Part shown: one piece after another, positions 2,084 through 51,325 of the stretch | Numbering within the stretch: position 1 is the first letter of the stretch | How the letters are laid out: each line of letters starts with the position of its first letter | NCBI GenBank assembly: GCA_045660125.1 | Contig: JAZRDG010000097.1 | Location: forward strand, 1 to 51,325 | Length of the DNA stretch: 51,325 nt | Reading direction: 5' to 3' | Source of the DNA: Eubacteriales bacterium | GTDB taxonomy: Bacteria; Bacillota; Clostridia; Oscillospirales; CAG-272 | The notes under the pieces: generated by a model | The model's input: only the letters and a program-made list of their open reading frames with translations | Told to the model about the DNA's origin: nothing | Databases searched by the model: none | Program-made: the position numbers and the translations under genes

Positions 2084-2319
2084 GCAGATATCAAGGGGGC
2101 GAGATTACGTATCATCTTGAAAAGTTCGGCAGGATCCTATTGGAGCTGCGCAAGGAGCGCGGCTGGACACAAAGTACGTTGGCGAAAAAGATGAACCTTT
2201 CTGCACAGTCGGTTTCCAAATGGGAACGCGGCACAAGCTACCCCGATATTGAGTTATTCCCGGTTCTTGCCGAGATTTTTGATGTGGACATAGGCGTTCT
2301 GTTCGGAAAGGATATATGA
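2080..2319 (+). CDS. XRE-family helix-turn-helix transcriptional regulator (small)
   Basis: HTH_3-like motif LRKERGWTQSTLAKKMNLSAQSVSKWERGTSYPDIELFPVLAEIFDV. The TTG start overlaps the upstream stop. The exact start is uncertain (an ATT at 2104 after AAGGGGG is possible). Confidence 0.75.
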   Translation: MSRYQGGEITYHLEKFGRILLELRKERGWTQSTLAKKMNLSAQSVSKWERGTSYPDIELFPVLAEIFDVDIGVLFGKDI

Positions 2320-2351
2320 AAAAAGCACTTGCCCAAGGCAAGTGCTTTTTT
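2319..2351 (+). terminator. Rho-independent bidirectional-type terminator
   Basis: A6, stem AGCACTTGCC/GGCAAGTGCT with loop CAA, then T6. The stem arms are the same as those of the terminator at 51086-51117. Confidence 0.85.
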
Positions 2352-2446
2352 CTATCCAAGCCGCAGGCTTGGTATATCATCCGCCGCAAGGCGGTATATC
2401 ATCAAAGGCGGCACGCCGCCTTTGTATATCATCACGGCAACGCCGT
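2352..2446. repeat. Hairpin array 2: constant word TATATCAT(C) alternating with variable perfect hairpins
   Basis: Word at 2373-2380, 2395-2403 and 2425-2433. Hairpins: 2356-2372 (CCAAGCC gca GGCTTGG), 2381-2394 (CCGCC gcaa GGCGG), 2404-2423 (AAAGGCGG cacg CCGCCTTT), 2434-2446 (ACGGC aac GCCGT). Confidence 0.85.
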
Positions 2447-21613: not shown

Positions 21614-23800
21614 TTAGTCCTTCTTCTTTACCACGCATGCAACTGCCAGCATAGCAACAAGTGCAAATGCACCGCCGATCACGCTGCCGCAGCCCTTCTT
21701 CTCGGTTGCGGGCTCGGTCTCGGTTTCGGGAGCAGTGGTTGCTTCGGTCTCGGGAGCCACGGTGGTCTCGGGCTCGGTGACCTCCTCGGTGGTCTCCTCG
21801 GTCGATTCAACGGGAGCAGGAACCGCAAGGTTCTCAATGGTCAAGAAGTGCAGCGCCTTATCGTCCGCGCCGGGCGTGACGGCAAAGTGCACGCTCACGG
21901 TCTGACCCTGATACTGGCTCAGATCCACGCCAACGTTCTCAAACACGGCGTGACCTGCGGAAGCGGTCTTGATCCAACCGTTTGCCATAACCTGCTGCAC
22001 AAGATCGTCAGACGCATCTGCATACGTGCCGCCCTGTACCTCGAACCAGGTTTCCTTATCAAGAGAGTAAAGAATCTTCTTCTGCGAGCCGTTTGCAAAC
22101 GCATAGCCGCTGATGGTGAGCAGATAATCCTCGCCAAGCGTCAAGGTGCTGCCGTCCAGCGTTGCGGGCTGACGTGCCTCCGCTTCCTTCTGCTCGCCCG
22201 ACCAATCGGAGCTGTATGCAGGATTTCTCATACCCACAAGATCGGTATAAGGCTCATCGGTGCCGTTTACGCCCTTGCCGTTGATATAGGATACGTCACC
22301 TACGTAGTAGTAGGAATAAGAGGGCGCGCCCTGAATGTGCGGAGCGTTGGGATCGGGTGCTACGGGCTCACCGAAGGTGGACTCAAGACCCAGACCGTCC
22401 AAGAACTTAATGCCGTAAGTATCGCAGTTGGTGGGGTTGGCATCCGCGCCCTTATAGACCAGTGCCAGACCGCTGATGACGCTGCGCACGCTGTTCTCAC
22501 CGTCGGATACAGCGCATCTTCTGACGTAATTGTCGCCCTCAAGCGTTACAAACTGCGTAGATCCGCCGCCGTCAAACATGATAGCGGTATAGCAGCCAAG
22601 CTCAACTGCAAGCTCCTGCATGTTCTTCATCTGGCATGCTGCGCGAGAGCCGTCTGCCTGCGTGGTGGTGGAGATCATCAGAACCTTACCGTCCTGCTTG
22701 ATACCTACGATGGTGCAGGGATAGTTGGTGGTCAGCTCCTGACCTCTGTGCTTGCCCTTCTCAACCAGGGTGTAGAAGCCGCCCGTAGCCTCAACTACGT
22801 CACTCCACTCAGCCTTGTCGGTCAGATACAGCTTATCCATCTTGACAGAGCAGGTAAAGGACACGGTATCGCCTACCGCATAGTTGCCCTTCTGCGCGTC
22901 GATTGCCTTACCTCTTGCGGAAATAACGACCGTCTTTTCGGTAATAGCGGGACGGGCGTTCTTATCGCCGCTTTGAATGACGTGCGTGACCTTACCGCTG
23001 ATGGTCTTGCCATAGCCGAACGCAGAGCTGTCGCACTCTACGTAGATCTCGTACGCATCCTCATACGCCATGGACTCGGTGCCGCAGCGCTGGTTGTACA
23101 GAATGGTGGAATTGGGCGCAGGCAGACGGTTGATGCCCGCTGCACTCATGGTCTTGGACTTAGTCACGTTCTCAATGCTGATCGCGGTATAGGGAGAACC
23201 GATGATGGCAGTGCCGTCCTTCTTAACGGCAAAAATGGGCTGATTTGCAGCGCCCGTGCCGCGTTCTGCGTTGTCGTCCTTGGCAAGATAGTTCTCGTCG
23301 CCGATCTGCTCGGTTGCCCAGATCTCACCGTTCTTGATCATCAAGCCTCTGGAAACGGAAACGTGCTTGACCGCAGGGCCGGTTGCAGCCTTGCCGTCAC
23401 CGTCGTAGTCGGTGTGGTATACGATCCAGGGGTCGCCGTTCATGGCAGCAATGACCGTTCCCTCACCCGTCTGGTTGTACGCAACAGCCGCGTTACCCAT
23501 GGTGTCCTTGGACCAGGTGTAGTCGCCGCAGTTGAGCACCTTGAATGCAACGTTGGTGTTTTTTGGGTTGACCTCAATGACGTTGAGCAAGCCCGCAGTG
23601 CTGTTTGCATACACACTGCCCGAGGTCAGCGAATACTGGGTCAAGGAAATGCCGGTGTTCTTGCCGTTGACCACAATGGTCTCGGATGCCTTCTTGTCCA
23701 TGCCGGTAGGCTCGCCTGCTGCCAGGACAGCAAAGCTAAGCACCGACGCCAGCATCAGCGCACACAAAGCAATGGAAGTAATTTTCTTCATCAATTTCAT
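21614..23800 (-). CDS. Secreted phosphodiester glycosidase (NAGPA/DUF2233-like) family protein with C-terminal TM anchor
   Basis: Signal peptide MKLMKKITSIALCALMLASVLSFAVLA. Motifs AAMNGDPW and AIMFDGGGSTQF. C-terminal Thr/Glu/Pro linker, KKGCGS, a TM, then KKKD. Confidence 0.8.
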   Translation of the reverse strand: MKLMKKITSIALCALMLASVLSFAVLAAGEPTGMDKKASETIVVNGKNTGISLTQYSLTSGSVYANSTAGLLNVIEVNPKNTNVAFKVLNCGDYTWSKDTMGNAAVAYNQTGEGTVIAAMNGDPWIVYHTDYDGDGKAATGPAVKHVSVSRGLMIKNGEIWATEQIGDENYLAKDDNAERGTGAANQPIFAVKKDGTAIIGSPYTAISIENVTKSKTMSAAGINRLPAPNSTILYNQRCGTESMAYEDAYEIYVECDSSAFGYGKTISGKVTHVIQSGDKNARPAITEKTVVISARGKAIDAQKGNYAVGDTVSFTCSVKMDKLYLTDKAEWSDVVEATGGFYTLVEKGKHRGQELTTNYPCTIVGIKQDGKVLMISTTTQADGSRAACQMKNMQELAVELGCYTAIMFDGGGSTQFVTLEGDNYVRRCAVSDGENSVRSVISGLALVYKGADANPTNCDTYGIKFLDGLGLESTFGEPVAPDPNAPHIQGAPSYSYYYVGDVSYINGKGVNGTDEPYTDLVGMRNPAYSSDWSGEQKEAEARQPATLDGSTLTLGEDYLLTISGYAFANGSQKKILYSLDKETWFEVQGGTYADASDDLVQQVMANGWIKTASAGHAVFENVGVDLSQYQGQTVSVHFAVTPGADDKALHFLTIENLAVPAPVESTEETTEEVTEPETTVAPETEATTAPETETEPATEKKGCGSVIGGAFALVAMLAVACVVKKKD

Positions 23801-44985: not shown

Positions 44986-46188
44986 ATGAGCTTTAAGAGA
45001 CTTGCTTGCTTTACCTTAGCTGCATTGCTGTTATGCAGTATTTGTGTGTCGTATGCGGCTTGCAACGACAAAGATAAACACGAGATCAACGAGCTGCACC
45101 AAACCAAGGTAGTCAAAAACGACCTTGCCGAATACGGTAACTTTGTCTGGGCGGAATCGAGCAGAATTTATCGCTTTAACCGAAAGACCGAGACCTTTTA
45201 TACCGCCTGCATCGATCCCGAATGCGACGGCAAATGCCCTGTGGATTGCGTCTTCAGTTACTTTGCGGGCGTGCACGATCAAAAGCTGTATTTTTTAGGC
45301 TGGCAGCAGTTTACGAACATCACTATGCTTGCCTATCAGGACGTTGTGACCGGCGAGACCCACGTGCTCAAGACCATGAGCGACACCGCAGACCCCAATG
45401 CCTACTTGACCTTTATTGACGGCGATTGGTGGTACTACAAATGCATGCTGCTCAAGGAGGGCGGAGACGCCACCAAGCCCACGGATTACGAGCCCTATAT
45501 TTGCAGAATTTCGCTTGACGGCTCCAAGGACGAAACCGTTTTCAAGCTTGCAGATACCGAATTTTTATATATGGCAGCGGACGGCAAGGTGGTGACCGCG
45601 CACACGGATAAGCTGTACGTAACCGACGCGGAGACCAAGCAAAAGGACGAGCTTTTCAATTTTACGCAAAACGGATATAAGTCCGTCATGTCCAATGCGC
45701 AATATTTTGACGGCAAGATGTATTTCACCGCCTTAAGTCCCAACATGGCAACCGTGCAATATACGGGCGGACAGCAGCGCATGTCTTTCCTCGTGCGCAT
45801 TGACCTTGACACCCGACAGGCAGAACGAGTGGTGGAAGGACCCGTGGAAAACTTTACCGTGACCGAGCAAGGTATCTATTACGTGCCTTTCAAGATCCGT
45901 TATCATTACGTACCGGATGATTACGAAAGAAACCCCAATAAGGTGACCTACTGCTTGTTTGAAGAGTCCATCTATTTGTGTAACCACGACGGAAGTAACG
46001 CCAAGGTCGTGTACACCAACGACAAGCTTGACTTTACGTTCTATTTCACGGTCATCGACAACACGCTGTACGGCTGGCTGTCCGATTACAATGAGCAGGA
46101 AAAAAGATTTTCCTCCTCGGGCTATTTCGGATCGGTCAACTTTGACACGGGGCGCATCGTACACGCCGTAAAGCCGGATAAGGAATGA
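44986..46188 (+). CDS. Lipoprotein, DUF5050-like distant paralog g (first gene of module 2)
   Basis: Lipobox LLLCSICVSYAAC|N. SD AAAGGAA. Motif FYTACIDPECDGKCPVDCVF at the position equivalent to VCPDPFCxH in paralogs a-f. Confidence 0.8.
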   Translation: MSFKRLACFTLAALLLCSICVSYAACNDKDKHEINELHQTKVVKNDLAEYGNFVWAESSRIYRFNRKTETFYTACIDPECDGKCPVDCVFSYFAGVHDQKLYFLGWQQFTNITMLAYQDVVTGETHVLKTMSDTADPNAYLTFIDGDWWYYKCMLLKEGGDATKPTDYEPYICRISLDGSKDETVFKLADTEFLYMAADGKVVTAHTDKLYVTDAETKQKDELFNFTQNGYKSVMSNAQYFDGKMYFTALSPNMATVQYTGGQQRMSFLVRIDLDTRQAERVVEGPVENFTVTEQGIYYVPFKIRYHYVPDDYERNPNKVTYCLFEESIYLCNHDGSNAKVVYTNDKLDFTFYFTVIDNTLYGWLSDYNEQEKRFSSSGYFGSVNFDTGRIVHAVKPDKE

Positions 46189-48551
46189 TGCGCCTATATA
46201 AATCCGAGCTGCGAAAGCTATGCAGCTCGCGGACGGTATGCATTGTTTTCATCGTGCTGCTGTGTATCAATTTTCTGCTTACGGCATATCTGTCAAAGCC
46301 CTTGCCCCACGAGGACGCCAAGAGGCAGGCATTCGAGGACTATTTGACCGATCCCGAGAAGACCGCGCAATATTACAAGGAACTGCAAATGCTTGCATCC
46401 TTGAACGAGCGCGAGGAGCAGCCGAATTTTCCGTACTCCTACTACGGCTCGCCCGAGTACGATGATTTTCTGATCCTGCGACTGATGTATAAGCGTGCTG
46501 AGTATCTTGAAAGCGGTTATACCAAGCAGGTCGACAGCATCATTTCGATGAGCGAGCGTAAGCTGGACGATATGTACAGCTTTTACTACGACGACGGCGA
46601 CTATGAGATCAAGGAACAAAAAGCGATCCTTGAGAGATACCGATCGATCAAGCAAAACGTGCAGCTTCCGCGCGAATACGCGCACGGCTACGACACCTAC
46701 ATCCAAAACAATACGGTCTCAGTCTTTGTGCTGCTGTGCGTATTGGTCTTTGCGTCGTACCTGTTTTTGGACGAGCGCGCCTCGGGCTTTGAGAGCATTT
46801 TACGCTGTGCCAAGCACGGGCGCGGCAGGACGTTCGTTGCCAAAACCCTTGCTCTGCTGACTTGTACGCTCTTTTTCGTGGTGGTCTTTTCGCTGACTAC
46901 CTTTGCTGCGGTGGGGTTGATGCAAGGCTACTCGGATATCACCAGCCCCATCCAAGTCTTTGAGGACTTCGCCAAGGTGCCTTACGAGGTGTCGATCCTT
47001 GGCTATATGCTGCTGCAAATGCTTGTGCGCGTGGTGGCGTTTGCGCTGATTGCCGCCTTTGTATCTTGCCTTGCGTGCCTGCGATTGCCCTACGTTGCCT
47101 CGATCGGCGGGGGGATTGCGCTATACGGTGTCAACGTGCTGATCAGTACGCGCACCTACATGGGCACAACGCCTGCGGTGCGCTATCTCAATCCTGCCGC
47201 CATGATCGAAGCCTGCGCATTGCTTGGATTTGACCGATACCTTTCATTGTTCGGCTTGCCCGTTTCTTACGTTGTAACGGCACTGCTGCTCTCGGTCATG
47301 GCAACGGTAGCGCTGTTTGTAACGGGCGGGATTCTGTTCTGCCAAAACGTGCGCGTGCCAAGCCTGCGGAAAAGCTTCAAGATGCCTAAGATTCTTGTTC
47401 CCAATCTTCCCGTGGCAAGAAAAAAGCACGGAAAAGTGCACACTTTTGCTTGGTATGAGCTCAAAAAGAACCGCTTTTTACTGCTTCTGGCTGCAATATG
47501 CGTGCTTTTGGCTATCAAAAGTGCGTACGTGGACAAGACTGTGGGTACGATGGAGAGCTATGACCAAGCCATTTATTACGAGTACGTGACCACCGTGCAG
47601 CCCATGGAAAGCGACGAGCGCACCGCATACATGAGGGCAGAGCGGGAGCGCATTGATACGATTCTGTTTGCCGCAGAATCCAATCGAAACGCATTCTCCA
47701 ATGACCAAATGACGGCAGAGGAATATTTTGCCTATTGCGAGCAGCTGACCGACGCAAGGGCACGCAACGGTGTGTTTGCCCGTGTGGAGAACTACGTAAA
47801 TTATATTGAGCGCAAGAATGCCGAAACGGGCGGTGACGCCAAAATCATTTACAGCATCGGCTACGAGCGGCTTTACAACTTGCCCTCCGACGCATTTGTG
47901 TGCGCTGCGCTGATGCTCTTATGCGTGGGTACGTTTGCGGTAGAATACGCGTCGCAATCCTCAAAGGGCGGCTTTTCGCAGATCTTGCGTGCCACCAAGC
48001 ACGGCAGAAAGCACACCTTTGCTTGCAAGATCATCACCTATGGCGCACTCGGCGCGTGCATCTCGGTCGCCTTTCGTGCTGCAACGCTGTTGATCGTGTC
48101 TCGCAATTACGTGCTGCCCGATTTGGATGCCGCGCTGTATTCTATCCAAGCCTTTTCCGATGTGACGTCGGACGTCACGATCGGGCAATACCTGCTGCTT
48201 GACCTTGGGCTGCAGATCCTGCTTGGCGCGATCTTTGCCGTGGTAGTCTGCACGCTCTCCTGCTTTTGCAAGCGTCCGCTTGCCACAATCGTTGCGAGCG
48301 TATTTGCCATCGGCTTGCCCGAGGTGCTTGCGAGCACCGTGCTGCCGCAGTTCGCGGCGTTCAGCATTCTCTCGCTTTCCTCACCGCTGCGCGTGACCGC
48401 CCTTTCAGCGCAAAAGCAGCTGTCCGGCGGTGATTTCACATATTTTTGGCGTGCTTTGACGCTGTATCTTTTGTTGGGCGCGGCACTCGTGCTGCTTGCA
48501 GGGCGCAAATTCTGCAAATCTTATTACAATGGGGGCTGCCATGAAGCTTGA
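46185..48551 (+). CDS. Fused double-TMD ABC-2-like permease (788 aa), module 2
   Basis: ATGA overlap with lipoprotein g. Same two-half architecture as 27301..29406: a TM plus a long hydrophilic loop, then helices, twice. Confidence 0.8.
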   Translation: MMRLYKSELRKLCSSRTVCIVFIVLLCINFLLTAYLSKPLPHEDAKRQAFEDYLTDPEKTAQYYKELQMLASLNEREEQPNFPYSYYGSPEYDDFLILRLMYKRAEYLESGYTKQVDSIISMSERKLDDMYSFYYDDGDYEIKEQKAILERYRSIKQNVQLPREYAHGYDTYIQNNTVSVFVLLCVLVFASYLFLDERASGFESILRCAKHGRGRTFVAKTLALLTCTLFFVVVFSLTTFAAVGLMQGYSDITSPIQVFEDFAKVPYEVSILGYMLLQMLVRVVAFALIAAFVSCLACLRLPYVASIGGGIALYGVNVLISTRTYMGTTPAVRYLNPAAMIEACALLGFDRYLSLFGLPVSYVVTALLLSVMATVALFVTGGILFCQNVRVPSLRKSFKMPKILVPNLPVARKKHGKVHTFAWYELKKNRFLLLLAAICVLLAIKSAYVDKTVGTMESYDQAIYYEYVTTVQPMESDERTAYMRAERERIDTILFAAESNRNAFSNDQMTAEEYFAYCEQLTDARARNGVFARVENYVNYIERKNAETGGDAKIIYSIGYERLYNLPSDAFVCAALMLLCVGTFAVEYASQSSKGGFSQILRATKHGRKHTFACKIITYGALGACISVAFRAATLLIVSRNYVLPDLDAALYSIQAFSDVTSDVTIGQYLLLDLGLQILLGAIFAVVVCTLSCFCKRPLATIVASVFAIGLPEVLASTVLPQFAAFSILSLSSPLRVTALSAQKQLSGGDFTYFWRALTLYLLLGAALVLLAGRKFCKSYYNGGCHEA

Positions 48552-50969: not shown

Positions 50970-50998
50970 TTGACGAACCGCCAAACCCATGATATAAT
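50970..50998 (+). promoter_or_regulatory. SigmaA-type promoter for tRNA-Gln
   Basis: TTGACG (50970-50975), 17-nt spacer, TATAAT (50993-50998), 11 nt before the tRNA 5' end. Confidence 0.75.
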
Positions 50999-51009: not shown

Positions 51010-51084
51010 TGGGGTGTCGCCAAGCGGTAAGGCACTAGACTTTGACTCTAGCATTCGTCAGTTCAAATCTGGCCACCCCAGCCA
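51010..51084 (+). tRNA. tRNA-Gln (anticodon UUG) with encoded CCA
   Basis: Acceptor stem TGGGGTG/CACCCCA, anticodon stem CTAGA/TCTAG with loop CTTTGAC (TTG), T-arm GTTCAAATC, then discriminator G plus CCA. Confidence 0.9.
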
Positions 51085-51085
51085 G

Positions 51086-51117
51086 AAAAAAGCACTTGCT
51101 TAGGCAAGTGCTTTTTT
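51086..51117 (+). terminator. Rho-independent bidirectional-type terminator
   Basis: A6, stem AGCACTTGC/GCAAGTGCT, T6. The stem arms are the same as at 2319-2351. Confidence 0.85.
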
Positions 51118-51300
51118 CAGTGAAATAAATCCCTGACGGGATTTGTGAAATGCACTTCGTGCGTGAAATACGCTTCGCGTGTGAAATGCGCTGCGGCGCG
51201 TGAGGGGATTTATTTCATTTCACATTGCGACCAACGGGAGCAATATTTCACAATTCACGAAGTGAATTATTTCACATTCGCCGCAAGGCGAATATTTCAC
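51118..51300. repeat. Hairpin array 3: constant word GTGAAAT (left) / ATTTCAC (right) alternating with variable hairpins
   Basis: GTGAAAT at 51120-26, 51145-51, 51163-69 and 51181-87 (degenerate GTGAGG at 51200-05). ATTTCAC at 51217-23, 51245-51, 51269-75 and 51294-300. Hairpins: 51127-44 (AAATCCC tgac GGGATTT), 51152-62 (GCAC ttc GTGC), 51170-80 (ACGC ttc GCGT), 51188-99 (GCGC tgcg GCGC), 51224-44 (imperfect), 51252-68 (AATTCAC gaa GTGAATT), 51276-93 (ATTCGCC gcaa GGCGAAT). Confidence 0.85.
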
Positions 51301-51325
51301 CAAATTTTCGACTCTAAAGTTTTTC

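Follow-up and report, generated by a model that had tools for sequence, protein, structure and literature searches.

The Gut-1 RNA motif is part of a composite hairpin element often found behind tRNA genes in uncultured gut Clostridia

REP, BIME and REPIN sequences are intergenic hairpins that lie just after genes, carry a short conserved motif 5' of each hairpin and have termination-related roles. Pneumococcal BOX, Neisseria Correia and miniature inverted-repeat transposable element (MITE)-type repeats are built from modules, are structured and intergenic, and may include terminators or promoters. Small RNAs (sRNAs) from the 3' external transcribed spacers of tRNAs derive from the trailing part of tRNA transcripts and have their own role. 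Here we analyze an array of hairpins and seven-nucleotide words located directly 3' of a tRNA-Gln gene in a 51,325-nucleotide contig of an Eubacteriales bacterium (GenBank assembly GCA_045660125.1, contig JAZRDG010000097.1; the whole stretch is referred to as the window). The array, a complete element of ~215 bases at 51085-51300, belongs to the family of the Gut-1 RNA, a motif described by Weinberg et al. 2010 (Genome Biol 11:R31; PMC2864571). That description, one sentence based on 43 representatives, gave three hairpins with GUGAAAU between them, found only in uncultured gut bacteria, and no function or context (PMC2864571).

Since 2010 Gut-1 has figured among the 'certain' structured RNAs, without organism, context or function. 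Our literature searches on Gut-1, RF01706 and the GTGAAAT/GUGAAAU word returned nothing beyond Weinberg 2010, and the tRNA anchor, composite anatomy, strand assignment, sister families and linked gene reported here appear to be absent from the literature searched. Gut-1 can now be described as one half of a separate repeat unit that often follows tRNA genes, includes a putative terminator and has a defined strand. It is also joined to the protein family PF05635, so that two function-unknown entries meet in one question: do the arms bind the protein, and do they bind it as RNA or as DNA?

The element resembles REP, BIME and REPIN sequences in its inverted pairs, its multiple copies and the single linked gene that stands beside some of them, but differs from REP in that all hairpins within one Gut-1 element are different, the word is a heptamer and the copy numbers seen are low. 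Judged by the hairpin conservation typical of REP-type repeats, corresponding hairpins are homologous between copies and those within one element are unrelated. An initial annotation of the window had called the stems unrelated; this is correct within one copy and incorrect between copies: over 180-250 nt, the unit as a whole shares 75-86% identity with copies from other genomes. As in CRISPR, a short constant unit alternates with variable units, although the constant unit here is 7 nt and the variable units are palindromes of 9-31 nt; on these grounds CRISPR had rightly been set aside, and no cas-like family recurred among the neighboring open reading frames (ORFs), which were clustered and not annotated. 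The element is unrelated in sequence to BOX, Correia and MITE repeats and has no terminal repeat plus target duplication. Any release of a Gut-1 trailer, by analogy with the sRNAs from tRNA 3' external transcribed spacers, is hypothetical. The intervening sequences of 23S rRNA encode a PF05635 protein (S23p), according to the family description cited in PMC10053308. Like them, the Gut-1 composite is a structured insertion on a highly transcribed stable-RNA gene with an accompanying PF05635 gene, but it lies behind tRNA genes and not within 23S rRNA, and its ORF, driven by its own promoter, is not part of the folded region. The linked protein is also of the same fold family as Avd of diversity-generating retroelements (PMC10053308); no reverse-transcriptase-like family recurred among the ORFs within 2.5 kb of the elements, and no search was made for template or variable repeats.

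Identity and anatomy of the Gut-1 composite

The initial annotation could not assign the array to any named class. This was wrong, because Rfam covariance models identify both halves as Gut-1 (RF01706): positions 51118-51192 match on the + strand with 66.9 bits and positions 51212-51302 on the - strand with 55.5 bits, both above the gathering score of 50 bits. The tRNA-proximal arm scores 63-86 bits with the Rfam model on the tRNA's strand at nine related loci (related loci carry L numbers below); distal-arm scores are weaker or absent at many of the related loci, and matches on both strands are also found in L163 and L107. In the model alignment three hairpins are separated by single-stranded GUGAAAU, and the stems covary. 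Taking membership and anatomy jointly, we regard it as close to certain that the window array is a copy of the known, functionally unexplained Gut-1 family. The window copy is an ordinary complete member without a linked gene.

The Rfam model spans just part of the element. Relative to the published motif, which covers only the proximal three hairpins and thus half of the larger element, the window element adds a terminator-like hairpin (hp0), a closing helix (P1), a distal arm and a tRNA anchor, and the family as a whole adds a linked gene. The distal arm is probably assigned by Rfam to the wrong strand. The features of the locus are:

50970-50998, + strand: sigma-70-type promoter of the stand-alone tRNA-Gln gene, TTGACG-17-TATAAT, TG-extended, 11 of 12 matches
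51010-51084, + strand: tRNA-Gln (anticodon UUG), the upstream anchor; ARAGORN, Rfam tRNA 61.3 bits, encoded CCA at 51082-51084
51085-51118, no strand assigned: hp0, A-run/T-run hairpin GAAAAAAGCACTTGC-TTAG-GCAAGTGCTTTTTTC, with 15-nt arms that are 100% complementary
51118-51192, + strand: proximal arm, the Rfam Gut-1 match (66.9 bits, E 2.5e-13; gathering score 50)
51120, 51145, 51163 and 51181, + strand: GTGAAAT words of the proximal arm, read in the sequence
51127-51144, 51152-51162 and 51170-51180, + strand: proximal-arm hairpins hp1, hp2 and hp3
51188-51204, + strand: hp4, GCGC-TGCG-GCGC, then a degenerate last word GTGAG; position conserved in 20 aligned elements
51205-51217, + strand: 3' strand of the long-range helix P1, GGGATTT+ATTTCA, pairing with 51121-51133 (TGAAAT+AAATCCC)
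51217-51300, + strand: distal arm and right end of the element, with ATTTCAC words at 51217, 51245, 51269 and 51294
51224-51244, 51252-51268 and 51276-51293: distal-arm hairpins hpA (tandem G-A/A-G internal loop), hpB and hpC (GCAA loop)
51301-51325, no strand assigned: flanking DNA outside the array, CAAATTTTCGACTCTAAAGTTTTTC, with a homologous flank in L129, L163 and the array-less L133

As originally described, four GTGAAAT words are mirrored by four ATTTCAC words, and all spacers between the words are hairpins. The first four are, in order, AAATCCC-TGAC-GGGATTT, GCAC-TTC-GTGC, ACGC-TTC-GCGT and GCGC-TGCG-GCGC, and the last three are ATTGC...GCAAT, AATTCAC-GAA-GTGAATT and ATTCGCC-GCAA-GGCGAAT. 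GTGAAAT/ATTTCAC sites occur 16 times in the whole window, with eight of them inside 181 nt; shuffled windows have a mean of 7.87 word sites, which corresponds to ~0.03 expected per 181 nt. Compared with shuffles, the folding energy of the element has z-scores of -9.6 (RNA, + strand), -8.2 (RNA, - strand) and -10.1 (DNA). A loose scan for clusters of 4-bp hairpins gave no discrimination, shuffled windows also yielding clusters of 4-7, and it was discarded as a statistic; what marks the array is that constant words occur together with spacers that are palindromic over their whole length. The hp0 hairpin begins on the base right after the tRNA CCA, and A6 and T6 are visible in its 15-bp stem. From its sequence it looks like a bidirectional intrinsic terminator, and it was missed by a consensus terminator scan because the T-run sits inside the stem.

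A pattern scan of one genome per species, followed by a second scan, gave 128 composites in total from metagenome-assembled genomes (MAGs) of uncultured gut Clostridia. Nearly all hairpin-type arrays were from MAGs of uncultured gut or rumen Clostridia, Oscillospiraceae and Acutalibacteraceae among them, and the nearest relatives of the window copy are in Eubacteriales/Oscillospiraceae MAGs. The genome collection held no match to an exact 50-mer of the array, and an exact look-up of the neighboring MatE protein gave no record, so orthologs took the place of the source contig in the comparisons. The arrays very often consist of a + arm and then a - arm after a gap of 26-33 nt. In the 20 aligned elements the order begins with hp0, a first word A(A/G)(C/T)GAAAT (often degenerate) and hp1, which has the form X-loop-X'; it continues with GTGAAAT, hp2, GTGAAAT, hp3, GTGAAAT, hp4 and GTGAG, followed by a second X' joined to ATTTCA, and ends with TTTCAC, hpA, ATTTCAC, hpB, ATTTCAC, hpC and ATTTCAC. 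Word spacing is irregular, at 18-25 bp. In relatives hp0 has 10-15 bp and is usually of the A-run/T-run terminator type, sometimes a G+C hairpin without a T-run.

The ends of the element are similarly defined. In tRNA-linked copies the left junction is CCA followed directly by GAAAAAAGC, and across elements the flanks read ...TTTTTTCA or CCA on the left and T(T/A)AAA on the right. The number of distal words is exactly four in 98 of the 128 copies, and conservation, measured as information content, falls to background one base past the last word (ATTTCAC+T). Because this right end is sharp and the flank at 51301-51325 is also present in an array-less relative, the array ends at 51300, contrary to the earlier suggestion that it might continue beyond the window edge. 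All 128 copies share one orientation.

Conserved pairing, strand and genomic context

The proposal that the stems preserve structure rather than sequence is borne out across the 128 elements. They contain 103 distinct proximal and 235 distinct distal spacers, of which 58% and 76%, respectively, pair over at least 4 bp from both ends, compared with 0.7% in shuffles; for hp1, both sides have changed in five of eight pairs (ten sequences). An alignment with MAFFT and RNAalifold aligned hp1 well and misaligned hp2 and hp3 owing to their variable lengths, and word-anchored, alignment-free counts were therefore adopted. The structure is selected and maintained through compensatory change.

A complementarity between 51120-33 and 51205-17 had also been reported, and it is real: an inverted-repeat search returned 51121-51133 and 51205-51217 as 13 nt with 100% complementarity. 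This helix, P1, covaries, and it is kept in 86 of 115 distinct elements, in which the hexamer preceding the central ATTTC is exactly complementary to the hexamer that follows the first GAAAT; with permuted partners the mean was 29 and the maximum 39 of the 115 elements. There are 19 sequence variants, with perfect helices of 11-16 bp. P1 encloses the proximal arm and is in competition with hp1, and the same topology recurs with unrelated sequence, CATTTGTGCC ... GGCACAAATG, in another array of the window (array 1, described below).

Mismatches in the stems carry information about the strand. When the distal arm is read on the tRNA's strand, G-T mismatches outnumber A-C mismatches 22:5 over distinct hairpins, involving many hairpins and positions. 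This count is de-duplicated and filtered over the 128 elements and the bias is in the distal arm only; a first count, over 33 elements, had given 13:14. The tandem G-A/A-G internal loop of hpA is conserved in the ATTTCAC sense, the other sense presenting pyrimidine mismatches. Given the G-T bias and the tandem G-A pairs, the element as a whole seems to be under selection as a single strand in the orientation of the upstream gene. No conserved promoter was found on either flank, the right having no conserved -10 and the left being hp0 or the tRNA, so that any RNA must arise from read-through of hp0. Several copies have an outward promoter whose -35 abuts the last word (ATTTCAC followed by TTGAAA-17-TATAAT), and most copies have no adjacent promoter.

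Upstream sequence was sufficient for this question in 106 composites. In 54 of these, a tRNA in the same orientation has its 3' end 114-153 nt away from the element center, which means that hp0 starts directly after the CCA. These tRNA-linked composites cover 25 anticodons, with no case of a tRNA on the opposite strand. Alleles of hp0 recur behind different tRNAs and in different genomes: that of the window element is 94-98% identical in L061, L073 (twice) and L129, and it is also found at window 2318-2353, ahead of another array. Some copies that are not behind a tRNA retain 8-12 nt of a tRNA 3' end plus CCA. The MAG RGIG4012 has at least five copies, RGIG4707 has three near-identical copies with different left flanks, and tandem copies are present in two contigs, L274 and L276. 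No similar DNA was found in phage and plasmid collections.

The contents of the site behind tRNA-Gln differ among species. L163 shares the window's distal arm, with one compensatory swap in hpC, and differs in its proximal arm; in L129 the same hp0 precedes an element built from GTGATAT/ATATCAC words; L130 retains a decayed distal arm; L132 and L133 carry another repeat; and L149 has a plain terminator. The repeat that replaces Gut-1 in L132 and L133 also lies downstream of tRNAs in L121 and L127, and contains tRNA-T-arm-like pieces (ccgatttgaacc..., ggttcgtaaatccgg) as well as repeated 'caatcaaattcctcgac' segments. In L163, which shares the right flank of the window copy, the element is followed by a gene (1711-2826) with a promoter of its own, whose product contains an Imm26 (immunity protein 26) domain.

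To examine the neighboring genes, 1062 ORFs within 2.5 kb of the 128 elements were clustered, without annotation. The sole strongly recurrent family encodes a four helix bundle protein of ~115 aa, PF05635/TIGR02436 (Pfam 85.7 bits, TIGR02436 96.8 bits). PF05635 is very common, and to our knowledge just one of its members, the accessory protein Avd, has been studied. The gene stands at a fixed distance behind about 18 of 125 elements (~12-15% of copies), and in 15 of 17 instances it starts 45-65 nt past the last word on the same strand, the -35 hexamer of its promoter abutting that word. Linked loci include L011, L045, L211, L213, L241, L261, L273 and L287, with homolog loci at L421-L500; the gene had no match in 80 control loci and is not present in the window. 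The reverse test agrees: 29 of 44 non-redundant metagenome loci with close homologs carry at least three upstream ATTTCAC words and most of the remainder carry variant-word arrays, so that ~90% of close homologs are preceded by such an element. Clades of the protein, which include the MAESKL, MKENKL and MSNSIL types, track the word type, for which linkage alone could suffice as the cause. The family resembles Avd of diversity-generating retroelements (PMC10053308), and the closest solved structure of the protein is 2RLD, a single entry with five chains of the same sequence. A literature search combining HEPN with intervening sequences found nothing.

Weighing the explanations

Our best overall explanation, which we hold as a whole with moderate confidence, starts from a discrete multi-copy intergenic element of uncultured gut Clostridia whose tRNA-proximal half is Gut-1. 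This dispersed repeat probably functions as one strand, in the sense of the tRNA, and the acting form is marginally favored to be RNA rather than single-stranded DNA. The element would act as one folded strand in the same sense as the upstream tRNA, the simplest source of which would be RNA from polymerase reading through hp0, with single-stranded DNA of the same strand as the alternative. The role of the variable hairpins would then be to space the invariant 7-nt words and present them in a fixed arrangement. The element would provide the terminator of the upstream gene, insulate the next promoter, and persist and spread as a REP- or MITE-like repeat, and the Avd-like four-helix-bundle protein encoded directly behind a minority of copies would read the words. 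As the partner that reads the words, the PF05635 protein is the best candidate, though we propose it only tentatively. More speculative still is a fuller scheme in which an unrecognized system uses the Gut-1 composite as its cis element. Here a probable PF05635 pentamer would read ~5 heptamers per arm on one strand, element and gene together would colonize tRNA 3' ends as the tRNA counterpart of 23S rRNA intervening sequences, the window copy would be non-autonomous, and the sister word families would have protein clades of their own.

Several observations weigh against this account. The PF05635 link could be the plain linkage of a cargo gene, and 85-88% of copies, the window copy included, have no PF05635 gene nearby. 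The proximal arm has a G-T to A-C ratio of 2:2 and thus no bias, and wobble pairs make up ~1.5% of all pairs; their near-absence is unusual for a structure selected purely as RNA and would fit palindromic DNA. As judged from its sequence hp0 is a seemingly efficient terminator, so the arms may be transcribed rarely, and the covarying P1 helix is not used in the minimum-energy folds. All relatives are MAG contigs, which makes the copy numbers lower bounds and binning errors possible. Finally, mobility is read from the distribution only, since neither a transposase nor a target-site duplication nor a clean empty site turned up.

The main rival is a REP/REPIN- or MITE-like life as non-autonomous mobile DNA, in which an enzyme recognizes the hairpins and heptamers as single-stranded DNA and copies them to new gene ends, with no host function required. 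We consider this possible but not the likelier course. It would account for near-identical copies at different sites of one genome, for the sharp ends, and for inverted arms with repeated subterminal words. The mosaic exchange of arms and hp0 (the window against L163 and L129, and the hp0 alleles behind different tRNAs), the 8-12 nt tRNA 3'-end fragments at non-tRNA copies and the scarcity of wobble pairs point the same way, and a gene linked to a minority of copies recalls RAYT among REPs. Against it, no transposase-like family recurs among the 1062 ORFs; this includes the Y1 (IS200/IS605-like) transposase family, the linked gene encoding a four-helix-bundle protein instead. There is no target-site duplication, MAGs have so far yielded few copies each (3-5), the tRNA-Gln site has long been occupied across species, and no phage or plasmid match was found.

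A second alternative is that the functional form is a rod spanning the whole locus, made of word-to-word helices with side hairpins, or else a cruciform, much as the initial annotation envisaged. The long word-word stem is indeed predicted by folding, word-to-word pairing being preferred in the minimum-energy folds of both RNA and DNA, and the arms carry complementary words in every family. GTGAAAT arrays have an ATTTCAC partner arm in 45 cases and an ATATCAC arm in none, and GTGATAT arrays have an ATATCAC arm in 43 cases and an ATTTCAC arm in none, a matching of 88:0 overall. Such matching could come from word-to-word pairing, from a shared reader or simply from common descent, and the last two explain it equally well. 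Thermodynamic folding does not tell apart local hairpins, the rod and P1, whereas the measurable evolutionary signal supports P1, a helix that closes the proximal arm alone and is topologically incompatible with a fully nested rod. A variant family, ATGAAAT/ATTTCAT (L450, L452, L460 and L467-L480), is also informative. Its proximal words are mostly ATGAAAT and its distal words mostly ATTTCAT, with one unchanged word per arm, and this odd word is the first of its arm in both cases, not the nested partner position. Such a concerted change does not fit simple nested word-to-word pairing. The rod is rather unlikely as the functional form.

It is less likely again that the locus is an array of double-stranded binding sites for a regulator of the adjacent promoter, a recombinase or a partition-type protein. 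Four plus four identical heptamers in two orientations would suit such a role, as would the outward promoter whose -35 abuts the last word in several copies and the tracking of word type with protein clade. Duplex sites leave unexplained the compensated palindromic spacers, the covarying helix of 11-16 bp and the strand-specific mismatches, however; the spacing of 18-25 bp is irregular and most copies lack an adjacent promoter. The literal Rfam reading, two independent convergent sRNA genes, one per strand and each a three-hairpin Gut-1 RNA, is the least probable: the covariance model does exceed its gathering score on both strands (also in L163 and L107) and the two arms, each read in its own GTGAAAT direction, have loops of a similar C-UNC-G type, but there is no conserved promoter outside either arm, the 22:5 ratio and the tandem G-A pairs of the distal arm favor the + strand, distal-arm scores are weaker or absent at many loci, and the arms form one unit with a constant spacing of 26-33 nt.

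Other identities were considered and rejected. Integron attC sites would have core sites in inverted orientation around each palindrome and cassette ORFs alongside; here the words on either side of a hairpin are direct repeats, and there are no cassette ORFs. A MITE in the strict sense would have terminal inverted repeats and a target duplication; the arms are inverted, but the flanks have no duplication. Integrase arm-type sites of a tRNA-inserted island were discarded because relatives share the right flank whether or not they have the array, and the neighboring ORFs contain no recurrent integrase-like family; a segment invertible between P1 repeats, by the single orientation of all 128 copies; and a translated repeat, by hairpin lengths that are not multiples of three. 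ATTTCAC is presumably also the box A heptamer of P1 plasmid parS, an unlikely relationship for a dispersed chromosomal repeat with palindromic spacers.

Sister word families and other features of the window

At least three further word families share the architecture of the Gut-1 composite. The GTGATAT/ATATCAC family is abundant, reaches the Gut-1 threshold in L129 and has the same tRNA link in about a quarter of its composites. Single-arm GTGAAAT hairpin arrays are also found in contigs binned as Akkermansia/Akkermansiaceae (L006, L012 and L072), with three arrays within 1 kb in L006, and one composite, L003, is binned as Bacteroidaceae; these could reflect horizontal spread or mis-binning.

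Two such arrays lie elsewhere in the window:

155-345: array 1, ATGAAGT/ATGATGT family, starting with the terminator AAAAACCCGAAAGC-AAAT-GCTTTCGGGTTTTT
2318-2447: array 2, hairpins separated by TATATCAT, beginning at the stop codon of an XRE-type helix-turn-helix gene (2080-2319)

In array 1, ACATCA/ACTTCATT words come first and are followed by AATGAAGT/AATGATGT words with TTCG-loop hairpins, giving the Gut-1 topology with the order of the word arms reversed and the proximal arm closed by the P1-type helix noted above. Its Gut-1 match is below threshold (256-330, 28.5 bits), and the same family is present in L241, L273 and L021. Array 2 has no clear mirrored arm in the window, both arms being present in L283, and no Rfam match; its terminator hairpin is nearly identical to that at 51085-51118.

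Further along the window, two adjacent long ORFs (44986-46188 and 46185-48551; 400 and 788 aa) lie upstream of an ABC ATPase gene and have no Pfam match at E <= 0.001. Overlapping tandem repeats with periods of 6, 12 and 24 (GGTCTC.../CTCGGTGACCTC) occupy 21700-21802, probably within a coding region.

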